A stretch of 54,929 nt of DNA from a virus (lineage: Duplodnaviria > Caudoviricetes): positions 1 to 54,929 of the IMG/VR virus record IMGVR_UViG_3300029822_001021; one strand, written 5' to 3'. A program made the position numbers and the translations under genes. This document shows, piece by piece, positions 37,214 to 54,929 of this stretch. Positions within the stretch are counted from its first letter, which is position 1. Each line of letters starts with the position of its first letter. The notes beneath the pieces are model-generated. The model searched no databases. It had not been told where the DNA came from and was given only the letters and a program-made list of their open reading frames with translations.

Positions 37214-38341
37214 TTAAACCTCCATAAATTCGTTTTTTGCGTTTGATATACTCATCGCCGGTCGCTTGTCCGTAACCGGAACTAGGGTCGGTTTGCCGGG
37301 CGGCTTTATAACCAGTCCGCCGAGAATTTCATTGAACCTTGATTTGCCCATCAGCTTTTCCATCTCAGTAATGCTGATAAGGCTCTCTCTATAGATGTCG
37401 CGGTATCCAGCAGCTTTTGCTGCTTCGGCGACGGCCTTCTCATCGCTATATTTCCGAACGGAGCGCCCCTCGACCACCTTGAAACCGGGCCACTCCTTGC
37501 CATGGTTCACAGCGGCGTCTGTGGCATAGGATATAATCTCATTTGCCCAACTGGTCAGGTCGCCGATCAAATTAAGAACCTCACCAATTTCCTCATCAGA
37601 AAGCAAGGGAGGAAGTGCAAACTCAAAGGCCGCCAGTTTAAGCTTGGCTTCGGCTCTGGCTCGACACTTTACCGCAGCCCGGCAGAACTGACAGTGTTCA
37701 CCCGGGACGTAGTCGCCCTCACCTTTAAAAGCCAACTCAGCCGTGGGTATCAGTGTTTCCTCCGCCCATTGATAAAGCGATTCCTTAAATACCGTGAAGG
37801 TGCTGACATTCTCCCGGCGTGGCTGAAAAATGGTCATGGCTACTGTACTGACGTCATATATCCCGTCAAACAGTTCCAGGGCACCAAGTGCATACAGCTT
37901 CATCTGGGGATTGTCCTTGGCATTCACCAGAACGCCCTGCCCATACTTAAAATCAATAACATGGAGTGTACCATCGCAGATAATAACGCAGTCGCCGGTT
38001 CCGAAACCATCCGGTACATACCTGGAAAAATCCAACCTCTGCTCAATCAGCACCAACGGGTCGTTGCATGTCAACTTTATCTGGGCGATGGTTTCAAGCA
38101 CAAAATCCACGTAAGCGCCGGTGTGGGCGTCCATTTCGTCGCAGTCGTACTTGGAGATTGGCTTCTTCGAGCGCATTTTTAGTGCTCGGCGCAGTTTGTG
38201 TTCAGCGAGGGCATGAGCTGCGGTACCCTCAGCAGCGGCTTCGCTTTCACTCTCATCAAACTCCAGTTCCAGCCTGGCTGATGGAGTACAGTTCATCCAG
38301 CGGTGCGCTCCAGAAGCGGAGAGTATAGCGTGTTTACTCAT
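37214..38341 (-). CDS. DUF2800 Cas4/RecB-like nuclease
   Basis: HAILSASG..RW..C, GFGTGD, IDFKYG, QMKLYA, CQFC...C. Confidence 0.88.
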   Translation of the reverse strand: MSKHAILSASGAHRWMNCTPSARLELEFDESESEAAAEGTAAHALAEHKLRRALKMRSKKPISKYDCDEMDAHTGAYVDFVLETIAQIKLTCNDPLVLIEQRLDFSRYVPDGFGTGDCVIICDGTLHVIDFKYGQGVLVNAKDNPQMKLYALGALELFDGIYDVSTVAMTIFQPRRENVSTFTVFKESLYQWAEETLIPTAELAFKGEGDYVPGEHCQFCRAAVKCRARAEAKLKLAAFEFALPPLLSDEEIGEVLNLIGDLTSWANEIISYATDAAVNHGKEWPGFKVVEGRSVRKYSDEKAVAEAAKAAGYRDIYRESLISITEMEKLMGKSRFNEILGGLVIKPPGKPTLVPVTDKRPAMSISNAKNEFMEV

Positions 38342-38661
38342 TTCAGCCCCTCCGCATCCGTGAGAAGTGCGGGATAATTCGCCGGGTCAATCTCACTGAG
38401 CCTTGATGCACCGTGCTTCTCCAACAGTGCTCGGACCTCAGCGGTAAAGCCATCATGGCTTTTCGCAGCCAGCACAGCCCGGACTTGCTCAAGCGTGACC
38501 GCTTTGGTTTCAGGTTTTTCTTCCTTTTTGACAGTTGGTGCTTCCGGCTTCAAAGCCCCGCTAGGCTCACCATCCGCCATTGTCTCTGCTACAGCCCAAA
38601 TGCTGTCTGCCAGATTTTTTAGGTTAGCCGCTACATCCAGCAATAGCTTGGTTTTGCTCAT
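38338..38661 (-). CDS. Conserved small phage replication-module protein
   Basis: TLEQVRAVLA...LSEIDP motif; GGAGG RBS. Confidence 0.75.
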   Translation of the reverse strand: MSKTKLLLDVAANLKNLADSIWAVAETMADGEPSGALKPEAPTVKKEEKPETKAVTLEQVRAVLAAKSHDGFTAEVRALLEKHGASRLSEIDPANYPALLTDAEGLK

Positions 38662-38848
38662 GGCTATCACCCCCCTCCTCAATAATTGAAAGCGCTCTCA
38701 CACTGTCGCCTGGGACAATGACCGTCAGCCTTTGCTTGTCACCAAGCAGGAGACGCAGCAGTCTCTCGCGCACGGTGACACGGCGACAGCCAACTATTCC
38801 GCCGCCCTGTGGTTCCTTTGAAACACTAATTCTAAGCGTGTGCTTCAT
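38624..38848 (-). CDS. Conserved small phage protein
   Basis: MKHTLRISVSK...LTVIVPGDSV; AAGGTG RBS. Confidence 0.7.
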   Translation of the reverse strand: MKHTLRISVSKEPQGGGIVGCRRVTVRERLLRLLLGDKQRLTVIVPGDSVRALSIIEEGGDSHEQNQAIAGCSG

Positions 38849-38861
38849 TCGGATCACCTTG

Positions 38862-38927
38862 CCTTTCCGAAGGCTGATTTCTTGTGCCTTCTGCCTTATG
38901 CCACCTGCGGAAGATAAATCGGACGGT
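38862..38927 (-). promoter_or_regulatory. Repeated promoter+hairpin element, copy C
   Basis: ACCGTCCGATT-N14-GGC-N8-GAAGGC-loop-GCCTTCGGAAAGG immediately after the sigma gene stop. Confidence 0.7.
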
Positions 38928-38929
38928 TA

Positions 38930-39313
38930 CTATAACATTTTTTTGAGTTTGTTCTTTGCTCGGTTTACGGCGTGGCGTATAGCGGACTCGTCCACGCCTT
39001 CCAGGGCGGCAAGTTCTGTGTATTTCCAACCTTCCAGACAGGTTTTACGGATAAGGTACTGCTGTCGCTCGGTCAGGTGGGACATAGCGCGGCTAACAGT
39101 TTCTGAAGCTATAAGGTCGGCAAGCAAGTCCGTTCCATCGTCAAAGAACCGCTTGTCCTCATAGGTGAAACTCTCAAGGGAAGTGTGGCGGCGGGTTTCC
39201 CGCCGTTCATTTTTCTTTTCTTCTTCTACGGAACTGAGATAGAAGGTACCGACTTCGTCAGAAACCTCCAATTCGATGATTCTGCCATCGGCATCTTTGT
39301 AATTTATTAACAT
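38930..39313 (-). CDS. Sigma-70 region 4-type phage transcription factor
   Basis: LTERQQYLI...WKYTELAALEGVDESAIRHAVNRAKNKLKK HTH. Confidence 0.85.
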   Translation of the reverse strand: MLINYKDADGRIIELEVSDEVGTFYLSSVEEEKKNERRETRRHTSLESFTYEDKRFFDDGTDLLADLIASETVSRAMSHLTERQQYLIRKTCLEGWKYTELAALEGVDESAIRHAVNRAKNKLKKML

Positions 39314-39319
39314 CTTTTT

Positions 39320-39451
39320 CCTCCTGCGATTTTCAAAAGTTGGCTTGAAAATCCGCAGGGGGCCGATGTCTCAAATCCGTAGAAACAAAACGAGACGGGC
39401 GGCGACACCAGTGGTTGGTGTCATCCTGCCCGTCTCGCGGTTCTGCGGATT
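39320..39451 (-). ncRNA. Structured cis-regulatory leader (attenuator/switch candidate) of the sigma gene
   Basis: Nested stems 39404-10/39416-22, 39391-400/39428-37, 39374-84/39441-51 and an RBS-overlapping stem 39323-36/39345-59. Confidence 0.5.
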
Positions 39452-39475
39452 CTCGTTATTGACTTGTGTTTGCGG

Positions 39476-39625
39476 TTATGCTACTTCTGTATTTATGATT
39501 ACTGCTTTTCCATCTGGTTTAATAAAAATCAGCGTCTTGCAGCCTTTGTAGACAATTTCTACGACGCCAGCTTTCTCATCCAGGCGGCAGACCAGCTTGC
39601 CGCGAGCGTTTCGGATATCTCGCAT
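39476..39625 (-). CDS. 49-aa small protein missed by the ORF track
   Basis: MRDIRNARGKLVCRLDEKAGVVEIVYKGCKTLIFIKPDGKAVIINTEVA; GAAAGGAG RBS. Confidence 0.7.
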   Translation of the reverse strand: MRDIRNARGKLVCRLDEKAGVVEIVYKGCKTLIFIKPDGKAVIINTEVA

Positions 39626-39777
39626 CTCGACGCATCTCCTTTCCATGAAAAGTACGGCTTGTCTGACCGTCTATATTGATTTTATTGGCTCAAGCACGGT
39701 GAGTCCTCAGCTACAGCTCCGCTATCACTCCGCTATTACTCAGCAAATTTTCATTTGTTTTTATCGCAGAAAATTGG

Positions 39778-39850
39778 ACTAAGCATTTGCAAAGATTAAA
39801 TTAACATATTTAAATTTATGTTTTTTATTTGCTTAGTTATTTGCTATAAT
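39778..39850. promoter_or_regulatory. Divergent control region with operator-like inverted repeats and extended -10
   Basis: ACTAAGCA/TGCTTAGT and AACATA/TATGTT inverted repeats; TGCTATAAT at 39842-39850. Confidence 0.55.
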
Positions 39851-39899
39851 TAGGTAACAACTTATTTTAAGAGCGTCCAGAATGCTTGGAGGCGATATA

Positions 39900-40118
39900 A
39901 TGGCATTTAGTTATAACAAGCTTTGGAAACTATTAATTGATAAAAAGATGATGAAAAAAGACTTGATGGCAAAGACGAATCTGACATCAACTACGATAGC
40001 GAAGATGAGTAAGGACTTGCCGGTAAGCATGGACGTATTAGCCAGAATCTGTAAGGCTCTTGATGTGAACATTGGTGATATTGTTGACTATGTCGATGAT
40101 GATGCATCGAATTCTTAG
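39900..40118 (+). CDS. Cro/CI-type HTH repressor (HTH only)
   Basis: SYNKLWKLLIDK...VLARICKALDVNIGDIV; divergent from lytic genes. Confidence 0.88.
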   Translation: MAFSYNKLWKLLIDKKMMKKDLMAKTNLTSTTIAKMSKDLPVSMDVLARICKALDVNIGDIVDYVDDDASNS

Positions 40119-40141
40119 ATTTAATTAAGGGGGCGCAATTT

Positions 40142-41380
40142 ATGAAAAAGCTGTGCTTTGGTTCTTACGCAACGGTTTTAACGCTTTGTAAAGCAAAAAG
40201 CGTTACGCAAAAGCGGTTGTGTGGCACCATCTTGCTTTCTATTGCGCCAAATTATGATATTCGTGAAGATGATGGCACTACTTCAGATTTGGTTCGTGGT
40301 AAGAAAAATCTATCGCCTATCGTGACTGAAAATGCCCCAACAGTGGACTTGCGTACTGTTGCTGATTATTTCAAACATAATATCCTATCTCTCCTGGACA
40401 GCAACAAAAGGAGCCACATCGTTCTTGCGTTGAAGGATATCGTCGCTTCTGATGACACAATCGAGCCTGATACAATTGTGGAAAGAGTTAACGGAATGAC
40501 AAAAGCAACTATTGCAGGACGTAATGCTTTTGTATTAGAAGACTTTCTGGCCGGGCTTTTCCTATATACGGTGGTCAATGTAGAAAACCGCAACTGTCAA
40601 GAAAGCATAAGAGAGATAACCGGTGAGTACATACAGTCCTTTGACACACAAAAAACGAGCATAGACTTTCTTACGGCATACAGCAATTTCTCAATGGGGA
40701 TCGCCGATGAAATAGCGATTAACACTCGCGCTTTGGTTTTACTAACAGAGACAGGCGGCAAATGTCAAAAATGTGGGAGACCATTAGGCATAAAAAAAGA
40801 AGGTAACGACGTTAATTACGCTAAAGTCGTTCACCTTTCTGAAACTGATGATGTTATTCTATGTGTTGACTGTGAACGCGAAATGCAAAATGCCTCAGAA
40901 GACGATAAATTGGCTTTATTATCGGACAAACATTATTTAGAAAATCTTACGGCGGCAAGGAATGCAACGTCACTATATACATTGCAAAATCAAATTGAAG
41001 ATGTGCTTCGTGAAGTAAACTTAATGGATGTTACAGATGATACACGTCTCAAAATAGAACCTGTCAAGGTTGAAAAGAAAGTCACTGAAAAGCGGTTGAA
41101 AGAGCGTGTGCTTTTTGATGTTACGCAGTTGTATGAAGGCGTTAATAATGCGTTAGATCGATTGGCAGGAGAAAACAAGCTAAACGTTGATAAGTTTGCT
41201 AAAAGTATTAAGCGGATGTATGAAGATGCAAGCGAATCGCTTCCCTCCCAAAGTGCCATTTATAATCTGCTCGTTGAAACATTGTTTGAAAAGACTGGCC
41301 GCAAATACAAAGAAGCCTGTGAAATAATAATCTCCTACTTCGTGCAAAGGTGTGAGGTATTCGATGAGATTGCCGAATAA
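40142..41380 (+). CDS. ABC-three-component (Lamassu-like) effector with HNH-like Zn finger and C-terminal CTD
   Basis: CQKC...LCVDC; C-terminal IISYFVQRCEVF typical of ABC-3C CTDs; followed by middle component and ABC ATPase. Confidence 0.72.
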   Translation: MKKLCFGSYATVLTLCKAKSVTQKRLCGTILLSIAPNYDIREDDGTTSDLVRGKKNLSPIVTENAPTVDLRTVADYFKHNILSLLDSNKRSHIVLALKDIVASDDTIEPDTIVERVNGMTKATIAGRNAFVLEDFLAGLFLYTVVNVENRNCQESIREITGEYIQSFDTQKTSIDFLTAYSNFSMGIADEIAINTRALVLLTETGGKCQKCGRPLGIKKEGNDVNYAKVVHLSETDDVILCVDCEREMQNASEDDKLALLSDKHYLENLTAARNATSLYTLQNQIEDVLREVNLMDVTDDTRLKIEPVKVEKKVTEKRLKERVLFDVTQLYEGVNNALDRLAGENKLNVDKFAKSIKRMYEDASESLPSQSAIYNLLVETLFEKTGRKYKEACEIIISYFVQRCEVFDEIAE

Positions 41381-41603
41381 AGTTACATCTTATACAAACA
41401 GCGTTATCGCCCGTTTTCCAGATATCTTAGAAGTATTGACGCAGCGAGATATGTCTCCTAAAGAGCTGTTTGAACTAACCACATCAGGGCAGAAGGATAT
41501 GGGCGATTTTCTAAGTGCTTTAGACTGCTTGTTTGCATTGGGGAAAATTGAATTAATGGATGAAGGGAGGGTACTACGCTATGTTGACAGAAATTCGATG
41601 TGA
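41364..41603 (+). CDS. ABC-three-component middle component (LmuC-like)
   Basis: MRLPNKVTSY...LDCLFALGKI; overlaps both neighbours. Confidence 0.75.
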   Translation: MRLPNKVTSYTNSVIARFPDILEVLTQRDMSPKELFELTTSGQKDMGDFLSALDCLFALGKIELMDEGRVLRYVDRNSM

Positions 41604-43233
41604 TAAATTTGCACCTAAGCATCAAAACATCCAATTTAATTATGGACTTAATACGGTTTTAGGTAGTTCTGGCGGCAGTAATGCCATTGGCAAATCAACA
41701 TTTCTGTGGATTATCGACTATGCGTTCGGCGGTGAAGGCTACTACACCCTTTCTGGTGACATTAAAAAAGAGATCGGCCCTCATACCATTTATTTCACTT
41801 TTCAATTTGAAGGACAGCCACATTACTTTTACCGGAGAACCGATGAACCTAAAAATGTATATCGCTGTGATAAAGAAGGCCATTTCATTACAAAGTTGTC
41901 GCTTGATGAATTTCGGAGCTTTCTCTTTCAGGAATACAAGGTTGGACTTCCAGCCCTTACATTTTCGGAGATTACAGAGCGGTATTTTCGTATTTATGGC
42001 CGGGAAAATACACTGGAGAAGTACCCCCTGCTCGTAAAGCCTCGTGAACAGGATGAAAAAGCAGTTGATTTTCTGATGAAACTATTTGGTCACTACAATA
42101 TTCTTTCTGCCATTAAGAACATGGAGGAAGAACTTGGTGTCAAATACTCGCAGCTTAAATCGCGTAAGCGTCAGCAGGTTGACACCGCAAAAATTGAAAT
42201 GAATCAGAAGACTATAGAGTCACTGAAGAAAAGGCTCCAGAAGCTAATGAAAAACAGTGAAGAGGCCCAGTTAGCGCTGTTTGGGTTTGATACACAGACA
42301 TTTGAACGGATAAAAGCGGCTCAAAAAGAGTTGAACAAATTCATCCGCAAACGCAATCGTCTGCAATCTCAGCTTAATGCAATTTCGAGTAACATCGCTG
42401 ACACTAATCCTGAAACCGCCAGTGAATTTGATTCCCTGGTGCATTTTTTCCCAAATACTGATATAAAAGCCTTCGAGGAAATTGAGCACTTTCATAAGAG
42501 AATAAGGGAAATTCTGGGCGAAGAAATGGCTCAGGAAATAGCACGTTTGCAACCGCTCATTGATCATTGCGATAAAGAAATCAAACGTTTACATCAAAAG
42601 ATAGAGGAATCCGGCTTGGCAAAAGAGATGTCGGAACGAGTGCTCTCCCAATGTGTCAACGTGTCAAAAAGCATTGATAGACTAGAAGAGGAAACAGCCG
42701 AGTTGATTCACCAGAAAGAATTGCAGGAAATCCGCGCCGAAGCAGAGCACAAGCTAGAAAGACTAATGCTTCAACAAACCGAGAAGCTGGAAGAAATACA
42801 GGACAACATCAACCTACGTATGGCAACGATAAATGGTGTAGTGACTGAACACCAAGAAATAGCACCCATTCTGCAGATTACTCCCCAAAAGGAAATTACC
42901 TTTGAGACTCCTGGAAACACCAGTGAGGGTACTGCGTTTAAGAGCCTGGTGGTTTACGATTTAAGTGTGCTTGAGTTACGACCAATCCCTGTACTCATTC
43001 ATGATTCTAATATTCTCAAACGCATTGAGGACATACACCTAGAACACATATTGGAACTTTATCAGGCCAGTGGACGACAGATCTTTATTGCGTTTGACAA
43101 GGCTGATTCTACAACCACAAAGGCACACAAGATTTTAGAAGCTACAACGATTTTGCGGTTGTCGGATGGAAATGAGCTTTTTGGTCGTTCGTGGAGTAAG
43201 CACGAAACGAATGATATTAATGGGGGGATCTAA
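41581..43233 (+). CDS. SMC/Rad50-like ABC ATPase (DUF2326; LmuB-like)
   Basis: GSNAIGKST Walker A, long coiled coil, SEGTA signature, LIHDS Walker B, QIFIA. Confidence 0.82.
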   Translation: MLTEIRCDKFAPKHQNIQFNYGLNTVLGSSGGSNAIGKSTFLWIIDYAFGGEGYYTLSGDIKKEIGPHTIYFTFQFEGQPHYFYRRTDEPKNVYRCDKEGHFITKLSLDEFRSFLFQEYKVGLPALTFSEITERYFRIYGRENTLEKYPLLVKPREQDEKAVDFLMKLFGHYNILSAIKNMEEELGVKYSQLKSRKRQQVDTAKIEMNQKTIESLKKRLQKLMKNSEEAQLALFGFDTQTFERIKAAQKELNKFIRKRNRLQSQLNAISSNIADTNPETASEFDSLVHFFPNTDIKAFEEIEHFHKRIREILGEEMAQEIARLQPLIDHCDKEIKRLHQKIEESGLAKEMSERVLSQCVNVSKSIDRLEEETAELIHQKELQEIRAEAEHKLERLMLQQTEKLEEIQDNINLRMATINGVVTEHQEIAPILQITPQKEITFETPGNTSEGTAFKSLVVYDLSVLELRPIPVLIHDSNILKRIEDIHLEHILELYQASGRQIFIAFDKADSTTTKAHKILEATTILRLSDGNELFGRSWSKHETNDINGGI

Positions 43234-43236
43234 AAT

Positions 43237-45687
43237 ATGGCTGCAATAAACGATTTAATAAGGCAAATACCTGATACGTCTTTACGTATTCGTTTGGAAC
43301 AGGAAGTTGCTCGCCTATCTAAGAATAAAAAATTTGGACTAGTTTTCGAGGAACACATCCCTGAATGTACTCCGCTTTATGATGTTGCTATCAAACTTGG
43401 CTCGACAGTTGCACGAAAAACGGGACACATCAATGATTTCTATACAGTGGTGAAATTAAATGGCGATACTGCCCTTTGCCGTAAAAAGATAACAGGCGAT
43501 GCTGTGGCAATCCCACTTACGGAACTCGTTTCGGTTGCCCAATTTGGCGAGCCGATATTTCCTATGCTCCAACCGATTGAATCTGTAGAGAATGCGCCTG
43601 GTAGTAATCTATGGCACACACTCATTGAAGCAGACAACTACCACGCTCTCCAATTGCTGGAATACCTATACCCCAAACAGGTAGATTGCATCTACATCGA
43701 CCCGCCATACAACACAGGGGCAAAAGATTGGAAATACAACAATGACTATGTGGATTCCTCTGATAGCTGGCGTCATAGCAAGTGGCTGTCAATGATGCAG
43801 AAGCGGCTGAGGATTGCGAAGAGGATTTTGAACCCAGACACAGGTGTTCTCATCGTCACCATTGACGAACACGAAGTGCATCACCTTCGAATTCTGTTAG
43901 AACAACTTTTTCCAGAGTTTTATATCCAAATGGTAACAGTTGTGATAAACCCTAAAGGGGTTACTCAGGGACGCTTTTCGCGGGTAGAGGAATATATAGT
44001 GTATTGCTTTGCTCCTAACGCATTTGTTGCTGACAACGATGATAATTTGCTAAACCCACCTATCCCCAACAGAAAACCACGTTGGAAGGGTTTGCTACGT
44101 TCAGGAACAGATGCAAATAGAAGCGACCGGGAAAGTATGTTTTATCCTGTGCTGGTTGATAGTGAGCGACAAGCTGTTGTAAAGGCGGGTAATTACTTAC
44201 CTTTATCGCAATCACCGGTTCTTGGTGAAAAGATTGAAGGCTATGAAGTCGCGTGGCCTATTAGAAAAGATGGTTCATTTGGAAGATGGAGTGTTGGTAG
44301 CGACACGTTAAACAACCTGATTTCCAAAGGATACGTAGCTTGTGGAAAATATGATTCACAACGTAGAACTTGGGGAATTTCGTACATAAGTCAACCAAAT
44401 CAACAACAAATTGAGCGTGGCGGTATCCGAATTGTCGGTCGTGACCCGATTACTAATGTTGTTACCATTGAATATGCTAGGGATGATACTCGTGTAATTA
44501 AAACGGTATGGCACCGCTCTTATCATGACGCTGGGGCTTATGGTTCTGACATGGTTTCAAGTATTGTAGGTCAGTCAAGAGCATTTTCTTTCCCGAAATC
44601 ACTTTATTCTACTAAAGATGCAATTATGGCAGTTGTTCGAAATAATAAAAAAGCCCTTATCGTTGATTTCTTTGCCGGAAGTGGTACAACTCTCCATGCC
44701 GTGAATCTGTTGAACGTTGAGGATAACGGCCAAAGACGGTGCATATTGGTCACAAATAATGAGGTTTCAGTTGACGAGGCACGGGATTTGCAAAGAAACG
44801 GCTACCAACCAGGTGACCTCGAATGGGAAAAACATGGAATTTGCCGCGCGGTAACTTGGCCGAGGACAAAATATAGCATTCTTGGCAAACGTGACGATGG
44901 CACAGTTCTAACAGGAGAGTACTTTACGAACCAGACCGTAACAAAGGAAGTTGATCGTTCATTCTATCAGCTCGGCTTTGTAGAGAACCCCACAGAACTA
45001 ACAACCAGCGCTAAAAAGCAGCTTGTTTCCTTGCTTCGTGGCAAGGATGGAAAGGCACAACTGCCGCAAACGTTGGTAAAAGCGGGCAGTAAATTTATTG
45101 TTTCGGATAAACATTCAGCGTCGGTTTTATTTGATATAAACGCTGTTGATGAATGGCTTGAAGCGTTGGAAGATCAAGACCACATCACCGACTTTTACAT
45201 ATTGGTCAAAGAGCCCGCGAAATTCAAAGCTATTAAAGCACTGGTTACTGATTTGCTTGGTCCCATTAGCGAGACAACGCAAGTGAAACGCCCCATGAGT
45301 GATGGCTTCCCTGCCAATGTCGAATATTTTAAACTTGGTTTTTTGGATAAAAACAGCGTGTCGTTGGGACAGCAGTTTCATGAAATACTACCACTGCTGT
45401 GGCTGAAATCTGGTGCACTTGGTAAGCGACCTGAACTAAGCAGCGATGAAGAACCAAAAATGTTAATTCTTCCACAGAACGGCTTTGCTGTTCTGGTTGA
45501 TGAAACAAAGTTTGCTGAGTTTGCCGAAAAGCTCTCGGAAGAAGATAGAATCAAGGTGGTCTATTTCGTAACAAACTCCGAGGACGCATTCCGTGAAATG
45601 ACCGCTGGCATAAAAGTAAATAAAACATACCAGCTATACCGCGATTACATCGACAACTTTGTGTTGGGGAGCAGGAGGGATTCATAA
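43237..45687 (+). CDS. Type III-like restriction-modification methyltransferase (Mod)
   Basis: KKFGLVFE, YIDPPYNTG, FPKS, DFFAGSGTT in beta-class order. Confidence 0.88.
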   Translation: MAAINDLIRQIPDTSLRIRLEQEVARLSKNKKFGLVFEEHIPECTPLYDVAIKLGSTVARKTGHINDFYTVVKLNGDTALCRKKITGDAVAIPLTELVSVAQFGEPIFPMLQPIESVENAPGSNLWHTLIEADNYHALQLLEYLYPKQVDCIYIDPPYNTGAKDWKYNNDYVDSSDSWRHSKWLSMMQKRLRIAKRILNPDTGVLIVTIDEHEVHHLRILLEQLFPEFYIQMVTVVINPKGVTQGRFSRVEEYIVYCFAPNAFVADNDDNLLNPPIPNRKPRWKGLLRSGTDANRSDRESMFYPVLVDSERQAVVKAGNYLPLSQSPVLGEKIEGYEVAWPIRKDGSFGRWSVGSDTLNNLISKGYVACGKYDSQRRTWGISYISQPNQQQIERGGIRIVGRDPITNVVTIEYARDDTRVIKTVWHRSYHDAGAYGSDMVSSIVGQSRAFSFPKSLYSTKDAIMAVVRNNKKALIVDFFAGSGTTLHAVNLLNVEDNGQRRCILVTNNEVSVDEARDLQRNGYQPGDLEWEKHGICRAVTWPRTKYSILGKRDDGTVLTGEYFTNQTVTKEVDRSFYQLGFVENPTELTTSAKKQLVSLLRGKDGKAQLPQTLVKAGSKFIVSDKHSASVLFDINAVDEWLEALEDQDHITDFYILVKEPAKFKAIKALVTDLLGPISETTQVKRPMSDGFPANVEYFKLGFLDKNSVSLGQQFHEILPLLWLKSGALGKRPELSSDEEPKMLILPQNGFAVLVDETKFAEFAEKLSEEDRIKVVYFVTNSEDAFREMTAGIKVNKTYQLYRDYIDNFVLGSRRDS

Positions 45688-48195
45688 ATGAGAGATACAT
45701 TATTTCCGTTTCAGGAAACAGCTCTTGCTGAATTGCATGAAAAGATCAATAAAGCACACTTGATGTGGAGCGAACGTGACCCACAAGTAATTTCCTTTTC
45801 CGCACCTACAGGTTCGGGAAAAACAATCATCATGACCACACTCTTTGAAGAAATTCTATTTGGGAGTGCAGATAACATTGGCGAGCCGAAGTCAGTGTTT
45901 GTTTGGCTTTCCGATTCACCGGAACTTAATGAGCAAACGCGGCTAAAAATTGAAAGCAAGTCTGATAAAATCCGTGTGCGGGATTTAGTTACTATTGATG
46001 CAACCTTTAGCGCCGAGTATCTTGAAGGTGGCCGCATCTATTTTCTGAACACACAAAAACTAGGTTCTGACAAACTATTGACGGCAAAATCCGATACACG
46101 GCAATATTCAATTTGGGAAACACTTACTAACACTACTAAACGTAATCCAAAGCAGTTTTATGTGGTGATTGATGAAGCGCATAGAGGCACCTATACCTCC
46201 GTTCAAGCGGAGAACAAAGCGCAGTCCATCATGCAGAAATTCATTAAAGGCAGCAAGGATGACGGGCTCTGTATTATGCCTCTTGTCATCGGTGTAACTG
46301 CAACCCCTCAGAGATTTGATAATTTAATTGCTGGAACTACATCGACAGTTCAGAAAGTCATCGTTCCTCCTGAGCATGTGCGTGATTCCGGACTTTTAAA
46401 GGACAGAATCATCATTCATTTCCCGGATATTCAACTAAGTGCCGAAATGACCATGTTCAAGGGTGCAGTAGAAAATTGGCTTAAAAAGTGCTCTCACTGG
46501 AAAGCTTACTGTGAACGCGAAAACGAGAAAATGGTAAATCCTATTCTCGTTGTTCAAGTCGAAGATGGCAACGAACGCGAAGTAACCCATACTGATATTG
46601 GGGCTTGTATTGATTTACTTGAGGAATCACTGGGGCGCAAATTACTGCCTGGTGAAGTGGTACATACCTTTAATGACCGTGGCACGATTAAAGTACGTGA
46701 CGTCGAAATTCAGCAAATCGAGGCCTCTCGAATTGAAGACGAAGAAAATGTGAAGGTAGTATTCTTCAAAATGAACCTTTCCACAGGCTGGGACTGTCCA
46801 CGTGCTGAAACGATGATGTCGTTCCGCAGTGCACAAGACTATACTTTTATTGCGCAGCTTTTAGGTCGTATGATTCGCACTCCTTTAGCGAGAAGAATTG
46901 CCTCCGATGCTGAACTTAATAGCGTGAGCCTTTTTCTTCCGTACTTTGACGAAGAAACAGTGAAAAATGTGGTTAATGCTCTACGCGATAGTGAGTCGGC
47001 TATGCCCGCCGAAACAGGTACTAACAAAGAACTTGTTACACTTGGTCGCAATCTTGCCTATGCCGATGTGTTTGATGCAATGGATAACCTCGTCACTTAC
47101 CGGGTAGATTCATCTCGCAAACAGGCACCTCTTAAGTTACTAATACAGCTTTCCCGAGCACTGACGATGGACGGCATTGATTTAGGAGCGCAGAAAACAG
47201 TTAAACATGCAGTTCTATCAAAAATGGATGAGGAAATTGCGCGGATAAAAGAAAGCGGAGAATTTAACAGCCGAGCTGCTGCGATCACCGGATTTGCTCT
47301 GGGTACACTCATATTTGAGTACGGAGACAATGCCTATTCCTTTGACGAAGCAACACAGACCATGACAGTATCGGATTTCGATATTTCACGACATTTTGAA
47401 CAGGCCGGAAAGCTGTTGGGCGAAGGCCTGCACAAAGAATATTGGATTCGGCACAGTAGCCGTGACCATATCGATATAAAAAAGGAGATCATCGTTCTTA
47501 CAAACGACACGGACGCAATGGAACGAATAGAAGCCTTTGCAGAGGAAAAATTCATTAATCTCTACGAAGACAATAAGCGCTCCATTGCAAAATTAAACGA
47601 GGCACGAAAAAATTTTTATGAAAGGTTAATAAATTCTTCTGTACAACCGATAGCTGTGCCATGGGTATTACCCGATTCAATCGATTTCTCTGTGCCAGAT
47701 GATAGCATTAAGTTTGAACAGCACCTATATTGTTCCGAGGACGATACATTCCAAACATCACTAAACCAATGGGAGAGCGGAGTTATTAAAGAAGAACTTA
47801 AAAACGGTGCCGTCTGCTGGTTACGTAATCTCGACCGTAAAAAGTGGTCACTTGAAATACCGTATGAAGTTAGCGGTATTACCACTTCTATGTTCCCGGA
47901 TTTAGTGGTTGTTAGAGCAGATGCACAGGGTTACGTTTTCGATATTCTGGAACCACATGACCCCAGTCGTAAGGATAATTACCCCAAGGCTGTAGGCTTG
48001 GCGAAATTTGCCGAGAAACACTGGGATAAATTTGGCAGAATTCAGCTCATTCGTCTAAAAAAAGGTGTAGATGGTCACGAACATTTCTATCGATTGGATA
48101 TGGGAAAAACAACAGTCAGAAATAAGGTTCGCGGTATTACGTCAAACGAGGAGCTTGATAGAATTTTCGACGCAGATGCTATACGTGAAGACTAG
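45688..48195 (+). CDS. Type III-like restriction subunit (Res helicase-nuclease)
   Basis: APTGSGKT, IDEAH, TATP, GWDCP, QLLGRMIR; C-terminal FPDL...LEPH nuclease-like motif. Confidence 0.85.
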   Translation: MRDTLFPFQETALAELHEKINKAHLMWSERDPQVISFSAPTGSGKTIIMTTLFEEILFGSADNIGEPKSVFVWLSDSPELNEQTRLKIESKSDKIRVRDLVTIDATFSAEYLEGGRIYFLNTQKLGSDKLLTAKSDTRQYSIWETLTNTTKRNPKQFYVVIDEAHRGTYTSVQAENKAQSIMQKFIKGSKDDGLCIMPLVIGVTATPQRFDNLIAGTTSTVQKVIVPPEHVRDSGLLKDRIIIHFPDIQLSAEMTMFKGAVENWLKKCSHWKAYCERENEKMVNPILVVQVEDGNEREVTHTDIGACIDLLEESLGRKLLPGEVVHTFNDRGTIKVRDVEIQQIEASRIEDEENVKVVFFKMNLSTGWDCPRAETMMSFRSAQDYTFIAQLLGRMIRTPLARRIASDAELNSVSLFLPYFDEETVKNVVNALRDSESAMPAETGTNKELVTLGRNLAYADVFDAMDNLVTYRVDSSRKQAPLKLLIQLSRALTMDGIDLGAQKTVKHAVLSKMDEEIARIKESGEFNSRAAAITGFALGTLIFEYGDNAYSFDEATQTMTVSDFDISRHFEQAGKLLGEGLHKEYWIRHSSRDHIDIKKEIIVLTNDTDAMERIEAFAEEKFINLYEDNKRSIAKLNEARKNFYERLINSSVQPIAVPWVLPDSIDFSVPDDSIKFEQHLYCSEDDTFQTSLNQWESGVIKEELKNGAVCWLRNLDRKKWSLEIPYEVSGITTSMFPDLVVVRADAQGYVFDILEPHDPSRKDNYPKAVGLAKFAEKHWDKFGRIQLIRLKKGVDGHEHFYRLDMGKTTVRNKVRGITSNEELDRIFDADAIRED

Positions 48196-48348
48196 ATCTC
48201 TAGTATGGCGGTCAGAGCATCTGGAAATGTAAAGGCAGGAAAATATCTATTTACGGACGGCAAAGCTTTCGGCTTTCGATATCTTCGCTTCATTGAGATA
48301 ACCGGGTTTTTCTGTACATTTAGCCATGATTAGGAGGCTATTAAAGAG

Positions 48349-51300
48349 ATGCAAACGCTGAAATTTGACGAGTTTTTGCGATCGCTAAAACAGAATAAGT
48401 ATATGCCGCATTCATTGCTATTGGGTGCAGGTGCTTCTGTGGAGTCGGGAATCCCCTGTGCATCGAATTGTGTGTGGGATTGGAAACACGAGATTTTTTT
48501 GTCCAAAAACCCGGGACTGATCGAAGTTTACAGAAATATTAAAGTGGATAATGTTCGCCTAGCTATCCAAAAATGGCTAGATAGCGAGAAAGTTTACCCT
48601 GTGCTGAACTCAGATGATGAATATTCCTTTTATGCAGAAAAAACATTCCCAATTGCCGATGACCGTAGGAAGTATTTTCAACATCTGGTTTCTGGGAAGA
48701 ATCCGAGTTTGGGTTATCACATCATTTCTATGCTGGCTGAAACAGGGATGATTAAGAGCGTTTGGACGACCAATTTTGATGGACTTATGCTGAAATGTGC
48801 CCATCAGTACGACGTCAATCCTATTGAAATTACATCAGAGACTGCTGACCGTATTTATCGGGGTGATGTACAAGGTGAGTTACTTTGCATCGCTTTACAC
48901 GGCGACTATAAGTATGGGGATTTGAAGAATACGTCTGAAGAATTAGACTCTCAAGACGATATTTTTATTAGTGCATTAAGCCATGAACTGGCGAATCGAG
49001 ACTTGATTGTGTTGGGATACAGCGGTCGAGACAAATCGCTAATGTCTGCACTCAATAAAGCATATTTAACTAAAGGGGCAGGTAAACTGTTTTGGTGTGG
49101 GTATGGCATAAATACGTCTGAGACAGTCAGCAATCTAATCCAGGCAGTAAATGACTCAGGTCATGCCGCTTATTACGTTCCAACTGATGGCTTCGATAAA
49201 ACTGTATATAGTCTGGCTCGCCATTGCATGAGTGAAGATAAAGCTTTCCTTCAGAAGATTGAGACCGTAAAGAAGAAATTAGGCGCAAAAACCAACGTGG
49301 TGACAAGCCGGTTTGACGCACTAAATCGTACGGTTAATAAAATTACCGACACAAACGTCTATCCTGTTGCATTTCCCAAGAATTGCTTCCAGTTTGAAGT
49401 TGAGTACGCCAAGGAAGAGTCTCCGTGGGCGTTTTGTAAAACGCTCTATGACAACAGCATTATGGCGGTACCCCTGAAAGGATTTATATATGCTTGGGGT
49501 GAAAAATCCCAAATACAAGTCATCTGCGCAGGCAAGCTAAAAAGTGAAATCTCGGTAACACCATTCACCCGAGATGCTCTTATACATAAAAGTGAGTTCA
49601 AAGAACTTCTATTAAAGACAGTCACGGCTTTGTTGGGACAGATTAATTCGCTCGAATATTCCAAAGACAAAATTTGGGATAGTTCTCAGCGTATATCAAA
49701 AAATATCGGTAGCAGAACTATTACTGCCTACAAAGGAATTCGCCTTGCTTTGATCTTCGATAATAAATACACATACATTACTGTAAGTCCAGCGTTTGCG
49801 TACGATAATGATATTATTTTGTCCCGCGATGAAAGAAAGCAGTTCGCTGATGCTTTCAGCCTTGACATAAATTCTGATAAGCCCAATTACAACATCCACA
49901 GCTACGTAGAAACATGGATTCGAAAACTACTTGGCAGAAATGGCATCCGATGTTCCTATCCTCAGAATACTTATACCGGATTCGATTTTATAGTCCGTCA
50001 TAATAGTGCTATTTTAGGGGTAAATTATGGAAGTAGCAGACCTATCCAACTACCACAAACAATCAATAGTAACAGAGTAATCTTCAATGGTGTAGAATGC
50101 CGCGACCCGGAATTGGAATTCTACAATCCGCATCAAAAACGTATGGTAACCGACTTCCATCCGATGCGTGGGTTGTTAAACAACACACCTTTTGATTATT
50201 CCCTAAACGAAAAAGTGCTAAGATCCTCAATATCATTGGGCGTGATATGTCCTGATAGCCACAAAAAACGGTTGCACGATTTTCTTAATCAGTTTAATTG
50301 TAGACAGAGTGTTAAATACAATGTTGATTTTGTCATTCCATTCCCTGGCTTTTATCAAGCTTTCAAAACGCAACTAGATATTCCATCGCCTGAATCCAAT
50401 GAATGGACAAACCTTCAACCCCCCAAGATTACAGACGTCCAAAGAGCATCTGTGGAATTAGGTAACTTAATCACTCGAAGACTTGACCAGTTAAGTGCCT
50501 CGGCGATTGATGTGGCGTTAATCTACATCCCCAAAGATTATGATTTTCTTACTGGATATGCAGAAAACAATGAAAAATATGATTTGCATGATTTTGTTAA
50601 AGCATATGCGGCTCAAAAAAATATAGCAACGCAATTTGTGAGGGAAAAGACTATTGAAAGCGAAATGTACTGTCAAATCATGTGGGCACTTTCCTTAGCG
50701 ATATATGTTAAGTCCAGTCGAATTCCGTGGGTTATTTCTGGACTCCAATATGATACTGCTTTTGCTGGCATCGGATACAGCGTAAACCATACACCAAAAG
50801 GAGCAAATATCATAGTTGGTTGCAGCCACATCTATTCATCCGATGGTCAGGGGATGAAGTATAAACTCTCCAAAATTGATGAGGTTACCTTTGACCGTAA
50901 GAAGAATCCATTCCTTTCCGAGGATGAAGCATACCGCCTTGGGCTGAATATAAAGGAACTGTTTTACAAATCCTTCACCGAGTTGCCCAAAAGGGTGGTT
51001 GTCCATAAAAGGACACCATTTAGAAAAGAGGAGGTTAAGGGGCTTGTTGAGAGCCTAGCAAGCGCAGGTGTTCGAGACATTGAGTTGTTGGAAATAACGT
51101 ATGAGGATGATATCAAGTGCTTCGAGTTCAATAAGAATGTGACCGGTATCGACGGTTTCCCAGTGCGACGCGGATTATGCTTCCCGCTTAACGAAAACAC
51201 CATGTACCTATATACTCACGGGATCGCTCCATCTGTTCGCGACCCAAACCGAAAGTATATACAGGGCGGCAAGACGATTCCGCTTCCGCTAAAAATCGTG

Positions 51301-51492
51301 AAGCATTATGGCAACGGCACAATGGCGCAGATTGCGACAGAAATATTGGGACTATCAAAGATGAACTGGAATAGCTTTGGCTTATATTCCAAGCTGCCCT
51401 GCACCATTGAGTCTTCAAATGAAATCGCGAGGATTGGTTGGCTACTATCGCAATATGAGGGCGCAATCTACGATTACCGTTATTTTATGTGA
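48349..51492 (+). CDS. Single-chain Sir2-APAZ-short Argonaute (SPARSA-type anti-invader NADase)
   Basis: Sir2: LLGAGAS, TTNFD, LHGD, LGYSG; MID: HDFVK, TQF, YVK; PIWI with lost tetrad: AGIGYS, VVHKRTP, LSKMNWNS, LPCTI. Confidence 0.88.
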   Translation: MQTLKFDEFLRSLKQNKYMPHSLLLGAGASVESGIPCASNCVWDWKHEIFLSKNPGLIEVYRNIKVDNVRLAIQKWLDSEKVYPVLNSDDEYSFYAEKTFPIADDRRKYFQHLVSGKNPSLGYHIISMLAETGMIKSVWTTNFDGLMLKCAHQYDVNPIEITSETADRIYRGDVQGELLCIALHGDYKYGDLKNTSEELDSQDDIFISALSHELANRDLIVLGYSGRDKSLMSALNKAYLTKGAGKLFWCGYGINTSETVSNLIQAVNDSGHAAYYVPTDGFDKTVYSLARHCMSEDKAFLQKIETVKKKLGAKTNVVTSRFDALNRTVNKITDTNVYPVAFPKNCFQFEVEYAKEESPWAFCKTLYDNSIMAVPLKGFIYAWGEKSQIQVICAGKLKSEISVTPFTRDALIHKSEFKELLLKTVTALLGQINSLEYSKDKIWDSSQRISKNIGSRTITAYKGIRLALIFDNKYTYITVSPAFAYDNDIILSRDERKQFADAFSLDINSDKPNYNIHSYVETWIRKLLGRNGIRCSYPQNTYTGFDFIVRHNSAILGVNYGSSRPIQLPQTINSNRVIFNGVECRDPELEFYNPHQKRMVTDFHPMRGLLNNTPFDYSLNEKVLRSSISLGVICPDSHKKRLHDFLNQFNCRQSVKYNVDFVIPFPGFYQAFKTQLDIPSPESNEWTNLQPPKITDVQRASVELGNLITRRLDQLSASAIDVALIYIPKDYDFLTGYAENNEKYDLHDFVKAYAAQKNIATQFVREKTIESEMYCQIMWALSLAIYVKSSRIPWVISGLQYDTAFAGIGYSVNHTPKGANIIVGCSHIYSSDGQGMKYKLSKIDEVTFDRKKNPFLSEDEAYRLGLNIKELFYKSFTELPKRVVVHKRTPFRKEEVKGLVESLASAGVRDIELLEITYEDDIKCFEFNKNVTGIDGFPVRRGLCFPLNENTMYLYTHGIAPSVRDPNRKYIQGGKTIPLPLKIVKHYGNGTMAQIATEILGLSKMNWNSFGLYSKLPCTIESSNEIARIGWLLSQYEGAIYDYRYFM

Positions 51493-51628
51493 ATGTAAGA
51501 ATTTGTGCTTGAGTTTGATAGTGAGTACGATTGACTAAATCATAAAAAAAACAATATGCATAAGATCTATTGTACCCTTAAGAAGCGGAGAATGATCTGA
51601 TTATTGGGACTGTATTGGTTCGGTATAT

Positions 51629-51700
51629 TTTCAACGATTCATCCCAATCTTTCAACGATTGCCTGTTGGCGATGCACACCCCTGCTAAATTTCAACGATT
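51629..51700 (+). repeat. Three TTTCAACGATT direct repeats around TGCACACCCC; candidate element end
   Basis: Copies at 51629-39, 51650-60, 51690-700. Confidence 0.65.
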
Positions 51701-51829
51701 ATCCCTGCCAACCCCACCGGAAAACGGTAAGATTTCCTCTTGCCAACGGCAAAATAACCCGCCCAAATAGATAAAAGCCGTCCCGCAAAAACGCAGGAAC
51801 GGTTTAGATACCGGCTTTCCATGCAAAAC

Positions 51830-51875
51830 AAAAACCACCCACCGATAAAATTTATTTTATCAATAGATGGTAGAT
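51830..51875 (-). terminator. ssrA terminator
   Basis: ACCATCTATTGATAAAA/TTTTATCGGTGGGTGGT stem (with G-U pairs) then TTTTG. Confidence 0.7.
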
Positions 51876-51879
51876 AATC

Positions 51880-52231
51880 TGGTGGAGGCGGGGGGAGTCG
51901 AACCCCCGTCCGCAAGAAAGACCAGCTGAGTATCTCCGAGCACAGTCCGTGTTTTGAGCTTCGCCATCCGGGCGCCCGCGGACAGGCTCCTTTCAAGCTA
52001 TCCCCGATTGTTTTCCCCATAAAGCCCCTCGAGAAAGAAGGCTTCAGGGTACCCTAACTAAGTGACGCCCTGCACCAGGCCGTTAGGAAACCTGGCCGGA
52101 CGAGCCGCTTAAGCGGCTAGTGCAAAATTATCTTCTGCAGTTAATTTAAGTTTTCACCTTTTTAACGAGCTGGCGACAACTCGGCTCGCTGCTCAACCCA
52201 TCTTATCCCCCGTCGAAACCAGTACGCCCCC
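51880..52231 (-). ncRNA. ssrA: tmRNA; tag reading frame AEDNFALAA
   Basis: GGGGGCG/CGCCTCC-ACCA acceptor stem with G3-U, GTTCGA T-loop, tag frame 52138-52109; adjacent to smpB. Confidence 0.96.
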
Positions 52232-52361: not shown

Positions 52362-52835
52362 CTAAGCACGGTTCCTCTCTTTTAGGCTGCGTTCCATATC
52401 GCGCCGGGCATCGCGGCTGGCTATATCCTCGCGCTTGTCATAGAGTTTTTTCCCTACTGCTACCGCCAGATCCATTTTAGCCCGGCCTTCTTTGAAGTAA
52501 ATCTTCAAGGGAATCAGGGTCAGGCCTTTTTCCCTCTGTAAAGCATGCAGGCGGTTTATTTCCCGCCGGTGCAAAAGGAGCTTTTTGGGCCGCAGAGGAT
52601 CATGGTTGAACTGGTTGCCTTTGTCATAGGGACTGATGTGGAAATTGTTGACCCAGATCTCTCCATCTTTGACCACAGCATAGGCATCACGCAGGTTGGC
52701 CTTGCCCATGCGCAGTGATTTGACCTCGGTCCCCACCAGTACCAGACCGGCTTCCAGGTTTTCTTTGATATGATATTCGTAGCGGGCGCGGCGGTTATCT
52801 ACCACCGACTTAATCCCTTTGCCCTTCTTGCCCAT
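52362..52835 (-). CDS. smpB: SsrA-binding protein
   Basis: NRRARYEY, EAGLVLVGTEVKSLR, KLLLHRREI, GKKLYDKR. Confidence 0.97.
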   Translation of the reverse strand: MGKKGKGIKSVVDNRRARYEYHIKENLEAGLVLVGTEVKSLRMGKANLRDAYAVVKDGEIWVNNFHISPYDKGNQFNHDPLRPKKLLLHRREINRLHALQREKGLTLIPLKIYFKEGRAKMDLAVAVGKKLYDKREDIASRDARRDMERSLKERNRA

Positions 52836-53103: not shown

Positions 53104-54929
53104 TTACTCATCCTGGAGCAATTCAAAATCGATCTTGCCTTCATCCACATCCACTCTAACCAGTTGCACCCGAACGCTATCGCCGATAGCAAATTTTCTC
53201 CCGCTATGCCGGCCACGCAGGGTGTAAGTACGATCGCTGAACAAATAGTAATCATCAGCTATGCTGGAGATATGCACCAGGCCCTCAACCGTGTTTTCCA
53301 GGGCTACGAAAAAACCAAAGGCTTGCACGGAAGAGATGCGAGCTGAGAATTCATCACCAACAAACTGGGACATATACTGGGCCTTTTTCACATCCAGGAG
53401 CTCTCTTTCCGCCTCCTCGGCTTTCATCTCCTGCAGGCTGGATTGTTCTCCGTAAATTGTCATCTTCTTTTCCAGGCTGCTCTTCTTACGGGCAGTCATA
53501 CCCCCATCCAAAAGGCTGCTGAGCACCCGGTGAACTATAAGGTCGGGATAACGCCGGATAGGACTGGTAAAATGGCAGTAGTAGGGGGAAGCCAGACCAA
53601 AATGACCCCGGGGCTCAGGCAGATAGGAAGCATGTTTCATGGAGCGTAAAATCATCAAGGAAATCATTTGCTCCTCCGGCCGGCCCTTAATGTCGGCCAG
53701 TATCTCTTGAAAAAGCATGGGGCTGACTTTATGTCCTTTTATCTTATGCCCAAATACCGCCAACACCTTGTTTAACTCGCCAATAGCTTCTTCATCCGGT
53801 TTTTCATGGACCCGATACAAGGCGGGAAGTCCCAGATTATGCAGGTGTTCCGCTACCACTTCATTGGCTTTTATCATAAAATCTTCTATCAGCATTTCAC
53901 CCGGACCGCGCTCGGCTCTTTTGACTTCTAGGGGAAAACCCTCTTCGTCAACTATTACCTTGCTTTCGGGGAAATCAAAATCCAGCATCCCCCGATTTAA
54001 GCGGGAACGGCGCAGGATATCAGATAGTTCTTTCATCAGGAAGAAATCCTCTACCAGTTCCCCGTATCGCTCCTTTAAGGGCGGGGGATTATCGGCCAGA
54101 ATACGGTTTACATCACGGTAAGTCATCCGTTCATTTATCTGGATTACCGACTTTACGATCTCGTAATCCACTACCTGTCCCCAGGAATCAATATCCATTA
54201 TACAGCTTATAGCCAAGCGCTCGACCTGAGGATTGAGGCTGCAGATATTATTGGATAATTCCACCGGCAGCATGGGCAGAACTTTATCTATCAGGTAAAC
54301 ACTGGTGCCGCGCTTAAAGGCTTCCCGGTCCAACTTGCAGTCTTCTTTAACATAATGGGAGACATCAGCAATATGCACCCCTAGCTTGTAGCCTTTCGAA
54401 GTTTTTTCAATGGAAACAGCATCATCCAGGTCTTTGGCATCTTCACCGTCAATGGTTACCATGCGCCAGTCCCGCAAGTCCCGGCGCCGGGATATCTCTT
54501 CCGCCGCGACCGCCACAGCCACGGACCGGGCTTCTTCAAGCACATTATCAGGAAATTCCAGGCGCAGGCCATGTTTTTTGGCCAAAACTTTAAGATCAAC
54601 ACCCGCCTCTCCCTTGCGTCCCAACACTTCCACGATTTTACCCTCGGCCACCTTGTCCCGTTCAGGCCAGGAGCTGATCCTGACCAATACCTTGTCTCCT
54701 TCTTTGGCTTTCCATTTACGCGAGGCTTTAACATAGATAGGGTAAATCTGCCGGGAATCATCCGGAACCACCTGCAGCAGGTGCCGGCCTTTGGTAAAGG
54801 TCCCTACCAGTTCCCGGGTGTTGCGGGCCAGGATTCTGATAACCGTGCCCTCCGGCCGCTGGCCGTTATATCCCTTTTCCTGTATCCTTACCATCACCCG
54901 GTCATTATGCATAGCCCCGTTGAGTTTCT
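53104..54929 (-). CDS. rnr: Ribonuclease R (5' end outside window)
   Basis: TIDGEDAKDLDDA, HFTSPIRRYPDL, C-terminal S1 domain; rnr-smpB-ssrA synteny. Confidence 0.95.
   Translation of the reverse strand, partial: KLNGAMHNDRVMVRIQEKGYNGQRPEGTVIRILARNTRELVGTFTKGRHLLQVVPDDSRQIYPIYVKASRKWKAKEGDKVLVRISSWPERDKVAEGKIVEVLGRKGEAGVDLKVLAKKHGLRLEFPDNVLEEARSVAVAVAAEEISRRRDLRDWRMVTIDGEDAKDLDDAVSIEKTSKGYKLGVHIADVSHYVKEDCKLDREAFKRGTSVYLIDKVLPMLPVELSNNICSLNPQVERLAISCIMDIDSWGQVVDYEIVKSVIQINERMTYRDVNRILADNPPPLKERYGELVEDFFLMKELSDILRRSRLNRGMLDFDFPESKVIVDEEGFPLEVKRAERGPGEMLIEDFMIKANEVVAEHLHNLGLPALYRVHEKPDEEAIGELNKVLAVFGHKIKGHKVSPMLFQEILADIKGRPEEQMISLMILRSMKHASYLPEPRGHFGLASPYYCHFTSPIRRYPDLIVHRVLSSLLDGGMTARKKSSLEKKMTIYGEQSSLQEMKAEEAERELLDVKKAQYMSQFVGDEFSARISSVQAFGFFVALENTVEGLVHISSIADDYYLFSDRTYTLRGRHSGRKFAIGDSVRVQLVRVDVDEGKIDFELLQDE

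Follow-up and report, generated by a model that had tools for sequence, protein, structure and literature searches.

A single-chain Sir2-Argonaute of the SPARSA-A type in an exchangeable defence cassette beside an ssrA-integrated Syntrophomonas prophage

The stretch of DNA analysed here, referred to below as the window, is the whole IMG/VR virus record IMGVR_UViG_3300029822_001021, which comprises 54,929 bp and is classed as linear. Near its right end, at positions 48349 to 51492, lies the open reading frame (ORF) of 1047 amino acids (aa) that the first-pass annotation of this DNA had reported; it is on the plus strand, starts with ATG and is open over its whole length. Its product (protein label P0001) is a short prokaryotic Argonaute (pAgo) fused to a Sir2 domain. 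The gene is carried by a low-GC defence island. On one side of this island lies the early-gene end of a Syntrophomonas prophage integrated at ssrA, and on the other side the attachment (att) arm of that element.

The only Pfam domain found in the protein is SIR2_2 at residues 137-249 (E 6e-9), and NCBIfam is without any model for it. The PADLOC pAgo model PDLC02384 matches residues 2-1047 with 1353 bits, covering model positions 3-1030 of 1030, and a second PADLOC model, Aga_SIR2-PNTD1-PNTD2 (PDLC02420), matches residues 1-1047 with 622 bits. In a phmmer search of PDB sequences, residues 600-1047 are similar to the SPARSA Argonaute chain of Geobacter sulfurreducens (8in8_C, E 1.5e-52) and residues 4-307 to the Sir2-APAZ chain of the same system (8in8_B, E 5e-28). 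The AlphaFold model of the whole protein, for which 15 close homologues served as input, is poor (mean pLDDT 59, pTM 0.33) and confident only at residues 335-550; it was used for a coarse fold match only. The top Foldseek match of this model is the whole Sir2-APAZ chain 8jl0_A (E 1.4e-22, 605 columns over the 573-residue chain), after which the SPARSA Argonaute chains follow in rank. This match spans the complete Sir2-APAZ chain and supports reading the middle part of the protein as an APAZ region. The domain order given by PADLOC, the PDB search and Foldseek is Sir2, APAZ, MID and PIWI in one polypeptide. An open frame of 1047 aa with such matches far exceeds what chance can be expected to produce, and the protein can be regarded as an ordinary member of the known family of fused Sir2-Argonaute anti-phage sensors, an assignment that we consider secure. 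The analogy to SPARSA systems drawn in the first-pass annotation pointed to the correct family. By architecture alone, the protein is placed among the SIR2-APAZ-pAgo fusions of the clade S1A type (SPARSA-A).

The residues expected to be critical for function were compared with those of characterised proteins. In the Sir2 domain, N142, H184 and D228 are aligned by phmmer with N142, H186 and D230 of the Geobacter protein GsSir2, and their positions were confirmed in the sequence; the three residues are invariant in the alignment of the 15 homologues, which are 61-80% identical to the 1047-aa protein. The substitutions N142A and H186A in GsSir2 are reported to eliminate NADase activity (PMC10781750), and D230A, as well as a bulky tag on the C-terminus of the Argonaute, is reported to eliminate defence (bioRxiv 10.1101/2021.12.14.472599). 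The NADase site of the Sir2 domain is intact-looking. In the other half of the protein, the MID residues H747, K751, Q762 and K788, which we take to form the pocket for the guide 5'-phosphate, are identical to the aligned residues of GsAgo, and the C-terminal YDYRYFM is identical to the aligned end of the same protein. The slicer tetrad was compared by hhalign, with the family profile set against the Argonaute of Thermus thermophilus (TtAgo, gene from plasmid pTT27), whose tetrad is presumably numbered D478/E512/D546/D660; the alignment does place D, E, D and D at these positions. TtAgo D478 corresponds to S811 and D546 to R888, E512 sits in a loop that is missing from the 1047-aa protein, and D660 falls on a gap beside S1023/N1024. 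None of the four positions is kept in this alignment, which is weak (probability 34%, E 4e-4), and the PIWI domain appears, with moderate confidence, to lack the DEDX catalytic tetrad. The initial description of an intact Sir2 domain joined to APAZ and to a MID-PIWI without the tetrad is thus borne out by the hidden Markov model domain search, the PDB search, Foldseek and hhalign, the last with the weak alignment just mentioned. The encoded SPARSA-A protein looks functional on these grounds.

The pAgo cassette is a swappable unit, the outermost of the island, and at its position either the pAgo gene or a Gabija-like pair is found, or neither of them. Of the 24 runs listed, 20 contain the island stretch 42000-51900; they derive from 12 digester and sludge studies, and three of them may represent the source sample. 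Logan contigs from four runs (X2, X5, X7 and X8) were compared with the window over positions 38000-54000 at a likeness limit of 90%. A contig of run X7, with 85 letters on its shorter side, joins 48202 to 51629, so that precisely the pAgo cassette is left out, and the cassette is also absent from a contig of run X5, in which 48202 is joined to 51782. The neighbour upstream of the pAgo gene is the Res helicase of the R-M pair, and as the cassette is gained and lost independently of this helicase, there is no indication of an obligate partner. The same breakpoints, 48202 and 51629, are found in Syntrophomonas sp. DTU019 (genome G021), a different species whose RNase R is 68% identical to that of the window. 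In this genome, positions 41491-43820 and 44653-48202 of the window are present at 98.6% nucleotide identity, adjoining ssrA; the homology stops at 48202 and resumes at 51629 with the arm, the repeat unit described below and ssrA at 80% identity, and a Gabija-like pair (an OLD-TOPRIM ATPase and a UvrD helicase) stands in place of the pAgo cassette. A further exchange is seen within the Type III restriction-modification (R-M) methyltransferase gene, Mod, of which the middle, at about 43821-44652, is replaced in G021, so that the protein is 75% identical overall between flanks of 98.6% nucleotide identity. In a contig of run X8, a joint from 43817 to 44668 with 709 other letters between lies inside the same gene, and the replacement looks like a swap of the target-recognition domain. 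A chimeric assembly at the junction of pAgo and ssrA was considered and rejected: unbroken contigs cross the pAgo/arm/ssrA junction in run X8 (record 31, spanning 46892-51884) and in run X5 (record 16, spanning 48084-51691), and since these contigs come from separate studies, the junction is not an assembly artefact. The coordinates of all features are collected in the table.

Table. Features of the window, from left to right, with the evidence or remarks that accompany each of them
Feature	Coordinates	Strand	Evidence or remarks
End of multicopy repeat	1..97	.	copies in other genomes/contigs
Two ORFs, 446 and 568 aa	97..3122	-	beyond recombinase terminator
Prophage body, complete-looking	3205..39644	-	recombinases, tail, capsid, portal, TerL, VapE, PolA, DUF2800 nuclease, sigma-like gene
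Two large serine recombinases	3205..4788 and 4785..6095	-	end of prophage body
Low-GC defence island	39645..51628	.	between phage early end and att arm; GC, contig joints
Small XRE/helix-turn-helix (HTH) regulator, 72 aa	39900..40118	+	divergent from phage early operon; VanU-like HTH 58 bits (sub-cutoff), weak control-protein match
Effector-like protein, HamA/DUF1837-like N-terminus with CTD11 of ABC-three-component (ABC-3C)	40142..41380	+	CTD11 1.9e-43, HamA1 4.5e-36
83-aa ORF	41352..41603		between effector and ATPase; kept in G004 and G008
DUF2326/LmuB-like SMC-type ATPase, ABC component of ABC-3C-like system	41560..43233	+	Pfam, PADLOC, NCBIfam
Type III R-M methyltransferase (Mod)	43237..45687	+	Pfam, PADLOC
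ResIII-type helicase, probable Type III Res subunit	45688..48195	+	start touches Mod stop; REase_III weak, 8e-11
pAgo cassette, unit present/absent/replaced	48203..51628	.	contig joints, G021 comparison
Single-chain SIR2-APAZ-MID-PIWI short Argonaute, SPARSA-A type	48349..51492	+	1047 aa; Pfam, PADLOC, PDB sequence search, Foldseek
Att-arm-like spacer	51629..51752	.	three TTCAACGATT boxes (51630, 51651, 51691), one GCACACCCC box (51674)
127 bp directly downstream of ssrA	51753..51879	.	two terminator-like hairpins
tmRNA gene (ssrA), start of host DNA	51880..52231	-	tmRNA match, G001 comparison
smpB	52362..52835		beyond ssrA
RNase R, truncated	53104..54912		beyond smpB

The right-hand part of the window is host DNA. 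Its genes show a Syntrophomonas wolfei-like host: RNase R shares 98% identity with its counterpart in Syntrophomonas wolfei subsp. methylbutyratica JCM 14075 (genome G001), and with respect to this conspecific genome smpB is 100% and ssrA 98.9% identical, whereas identity is only 77% over the 207 nucleotides that directly follow ssrA on its 3' side. Because identity drops at the 3' end of ssrA, accessory DNA is taken to begin at 51879|51880, and all the DNA to the left of 51880, that is, the att arm, the defence island at 39645-51628 and the 36-kb prophage, is by this comparison accessory. The 127 bp at 51753-51879 and the final 3 bases of ssrA make up a 130-bp unit here called rep. In two other species, the likeness of an ssrA flank of the G001 type is 93%, compared with just 88-91% for the ssrA gene; since the flank is more alike than ssrA itself, such flanks evidently travel with the integrating phage. 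Arms that resemble the spacer at 51629-51752 adjoin the end cassettes in G021, in G089 and in G001. In several genomes, the repeat downstream of ssrA has on either side boxes like TTCAACGATT, spaced by about 21 bp, and GCACACCCC boxes; arrays of them are located at 51629-51752 of the window, at C1:58466-58560 and 111300-111370 of G001, at C8:875-1230 of G089 and in L011, and the arrays that terminate the G001 element on either side are inverted relative to each other. The box arrays may be binding sites of a recombinase or of a regulator. When IMG/VR was searched for the exact 31-nt arm pattern, no matches were obtained. A two-box arm pattern gave 39 loci in the same database, and none of the four inspected (L200, L235, L207 and L237) is related to the window; L200 and L235 are simple tandem repeats. 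No conserved host gene is found downstream of ssrA in 15 related loci (L005-L054; 13 Syntrophomonadaceae-like and 2 of Hydrogenibacillus), four of which carry a serine recombinase gene with its 3' end facing ssrA; R-M genes are present in others. The DNA downstream of ssrA looks like a hotspot of integration and defence.

The prophage is 92-94% identical at the nucleotide level to the prophage of G001 across the late genes. A distantly related record is filed under Ca. Heliusvirales, and a term search of the paper on this group (PMC11283538) gave no mention of integrases or Argonautes. Megablast of positions 28000-52000 against phage records returned just short, distant matches. The prophage bodies of the window (3205-39644) and of G001 (C1:76477-111037) lie in opposite orientations, and despite this the island is found at the early-gene end in both. 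In a related phage record the second recombinase is annotated as a DNA invertase. Beyond the recombinases, the two ORFs of 446 and 568 aa belong to no family in Pfam, PADLOC or NCBIfam, and the DNA of this left flank differs among relatives (G004, L107 and G089); the segment 97-3122 is possibly a second cargo slot. The first 97 nucleotides of the window are 99% identical to a stretch on contig C12 of G001 and 85-86% identical to copies elsewhere, one of which lies near a DUF6431/rve/TniB-like transposon in G021. The multicopy nature of this repeat probably explains why the contig stops at position 1.

When a large protein collection was searched with the 1047-aa protein, 1037 of 7135 candidates matched at E <= 0.001. 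The 120 matches listed have lengths of 1035-1063 aa and identities of 61-100%, and the named sources among them are gut and digester Firmicutes and one Bacteroides metagenome-assembled genome. Matches were obtained in 2 of 107 Syntrophomonadaceae genomes, both of them fragments with stop codons, and in none of three close genomes; this distribution fits a recently imported, unstable cassette. A scan of metagenome contigs with the protein recovered only two relatives, which are 60-63% identical, and yielded no alternative junction. The sole other IMG/VR locus with a close relative is L002 (IMGVR_UViG_3300027985_001934, positions 509-15929), where a fused SIR2-pAgo of 61% identity directly adjoins a portal gene and a TerL gene split over two frames, followed by an HTH gene and a Type I R-M system with an FRG-domain protein; this is another pAgo island abutting a prophage that is possibly decayed.

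The mechanism of the system can be proposed by homology with GsSir2/Ago and with PgSir2-Ago, the single-chain protein of Paraburkholderia graminis. The MID-PIWI half would load short 5'-phosphorylated guide RNAs that originate from abundant transcripts. Once the guide pairs with complementary single-stranded DNA from an invader that replicates to high levels, the protein would change its conformation and its oligomeric state, and the changed state would activate the N-terminal Sir2 NADase. The resulting depletion of NAD+ would cause the infected cell to stop or die (abortive infection), and the PIWI domain itself would make no cut. It is very improbable that the gene is instead a decaying or non-functional copy, or that its function is something other than defence by NAD+ depletion. 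The broken remnants with stop codons in the sole 2 matching genomes of the 107 Syntrophomonadaceae would fit such decay, as would the depth of the X7 contigs, about 3 for the cassette as opposed to 13-16 for the island, although contig depth is a poor measure. In the window, however, the frame is intact across all 1047 aa, every catalytic and guide-binding position tested is kept and invariant in the family, and many full-length homologues exist at 61-80% identity.

Whether the gene is cargo of the phage depends on comparisons with related elements. In G001, 130-bp direct repeats (81% alike), one at ssrA and the other 53 kb away, bracket the phage together with a different island. This island lies at the same early-gene end and terminates in a SIR2 gene and a pAgo_II gene, followed by box arrays like those of the window. 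The pair is located on contig C1 at 58767-61799 (L098:2767-5799, minus strand), beside a Type III R-M system and an HKD+Snf2 protein, and consists of a separate SIR2 protein of 355 aa (PADLOC Aga_SIR2 class II, 440 bits) and a pAgo_II protein of 653 aa (724 bits). The IMG/VR record G004 contains the same phage and the start of the island, with proteins 94-98% identical on either side of the junction, and the DNA beyond the recombinase differs from that of the window, that is, the distal flank is different. Yet other genes follow the phage early end in G006, G007 and G008. Within the window, neither a second copy of the ssrA 3' end, nor long direct repeats that would be convincing as candidate att sites, nor a rep copy or arm boxes between island and phage were found. 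A separately integrated ssrA island was considered as well and is unlikely, since no rep/X-arm copy lies between the island and the phage. In G089, a broken pAgo remnant is followed by an arm, rep and X-arm, then by other ORFs and a decayed copy of the window phage, an arrangement that fits a tandem array or successive integrations alike.

The explanation that we favour, with moderate confidence, is that the SPARSA-A protein and its swappable end cassette belong to a horizontally moving island, which most likely lies inside an att-bounded mobile unit. The slot of the island is bounded by the early end of the phage and by the att arm, and it is for this reason that the island is most likely contained in the att-bounded unit. 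On the same comparisons, the placement of the pAgo gene within the phage att-bounded unit is likely, and we infer that the gene would be included in the excised or packaged genome. The other reading is that island and pAgo form a resident ssrA-linked chromosomal defence island, in which strains exchange cassettes by recombination and the prophage is a mere neighbour, so that pAgo would remain chromosomal upon phage excision. This is possible, though rather unlikely. It agrees with the 98.6% identical segment beside ssrA in G021, where no phage of the window family was found nearby and only one rep copy occurs, with the hypervariable and defence-rich DNA downstream of ssrA in the 15 related loci compared, with a GC content unlike that of the phage, and with the coming and going of pAgo and of the whole island independently of the phage in metagenome contigs. 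A resident island would nevertheless require two right-hand junctions for the phage early end, at 39645 and at 51629. Indeed, in a contig of run X7 position 39644 is joined to 51629, so that the entire island is omitted and the arm directly follows the phage early end; a contig of run X2 departs from the reference at 39644, and one of run X8 ends there. Moreover, in G004 phage and island have stayed together and diverged to the same degree, next to a different far flank, the repeats of G001 enclose phage and island jointly, and no att-like repeat separates the two.

Several observations weigh against containment of a working SPARSA-A gene in the phage unit. The joint 39644 to 51629 is seen in a single contig, whose shorter side has 46 letters, at 90% likeness, the distal att site is off the contig, which ends in the multicopy repeat first, and no circle junction was seen in the contigs compared over 38000-54000. 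The phage body is inverted relative to ssrA when compared with G001, G007 and L043, in which the recombinase end faces ssrA, and the GC content is 0.40-0.43 across the island versus about 0.50 in the phage. The low probability of the tetrad alignment (34%) is to be counted here as well. In G021, no close recombinase homologue was found genome-wide (the best is 40% identical and lies on another contig), the ORFs in the 40 kb examined give no convincing match to the phage proteins of the window, and only one rep copy is present, together with several insertion sequence elements, including IS21 and other transposases. The G021 comparison indicates that the island can reside, and can probably move, without the phage. 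The claim of the first-pass annotation that the gene is prophage-borne is plausible in view of the accessory nature of the DNA from the ssrA 3' end, the absence of an att-like repeat between phage and island and the linkage in G004. It is weakened by the nature of the gene as a separable cassette in a low-GC island, by the presence of most of that island beside ssrA in another species, where no phage of this family was found nearby, and by the absence of the distal att site and of any excised circle from the contigs.

The protein brings nothing new to SPARSA biology, as its type is characterised and its close relatives number more than 1000. The modest value of the locus lies in its context, a clear natural case of a single slot at which defence genes are turned over cassette by cassette: the breakpoints 48202/51629 hold pAgo, a Gabija-like pair or nothing, and the phage of a sister strain carries another class of Argonaute at the same end. 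The question of self-avoidance raised in the first-pass annotation is a reasonable one. If the island is packaged, the lysogen would be a concrete system in which to study the tolerance of a phage towards an abortive-infection module of its own that senses copy number. A wider proposition, which is tentative and on balance doubtful, is that ssrA-integrating Syntrophomonas phages shuttle abortive-infection modules between species by means of att-adjacent slots, with the phage body in either orientation, and thereby carry an RNA-guided NADase that they could trigger themselves. The modules in question would be the SIR2-pAgo fusion, SIR2 with a long-type pAgo, the Gabija-like pair, Type III R-M and ABC-3C. 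If this were true, the induced, high-copy and highly transcribed genome of the phage should trigger its own RNA-guided NADase, and either a self-avoidance device would be implied or a cost that explains the frequent loss of the pAgo cassette. No paper on a prophage-borne SPARSA system was found in the literature, which was judged mostly by titles and abstracts, so that absence is not thereby shown.

The nearest parallel to the locus is that of G001, in which a long-B-type pAgo with a separate SIR2 occupies the same terminal island position at the same phage end, again beside Type III R-M; it differs in the class of pAgo, and its genes have no DNA similarity to the cassette of the window. Temperate phages and their satellites have defence hotspots of the P2/P4 type, which likewise consist of a fixed slot by the att site with different defence cassettes in related elements. 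The slot described here differs from these hotspots in that it belongs to an ssrA-integrated phage with serine recombinases and in that the island also occurs phage-free.

With regard to the protein, clade S1A comprises SIR2-APAZ-pAgo fusions (SPARSA-A) according to Koopal et al. (PMC9097488), where expression of one such fusion, JomSIR2-APAZ-pAgo of Joostella marina, is reported to lower NAD. PgSir2-Ago is reported to shield Escherichia coli from lambda-vir and SECphi27 with about 400-500-fold protection (bioRxiv 10.1101/2021.12.14.472599). Both resemble the protein of the window in architecture, in that Sir2, APAZ, MID and an inactive PIWI are likewise joined in a single polypeptide; unlike them, the gene described here lies beside a prophage and its host is a syntrophic Firmicute. 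The closest solved structure for both halves is GsSir2/Ago (SPARSA-B, clade S1B; PDB 8in8, 8jkz, 8jl0, 8k87 and 8y80), to whose chains the Foldseek alignments have just 17-25% sequence identity. GsSir2/Ago has in common with the fusion the N142/H186 dyad, D230, the MID pocket residues and the C-terminal motif, and it consists of two operon-encoded proteins, whereas the gene of the window encodes both halves in a single chain.

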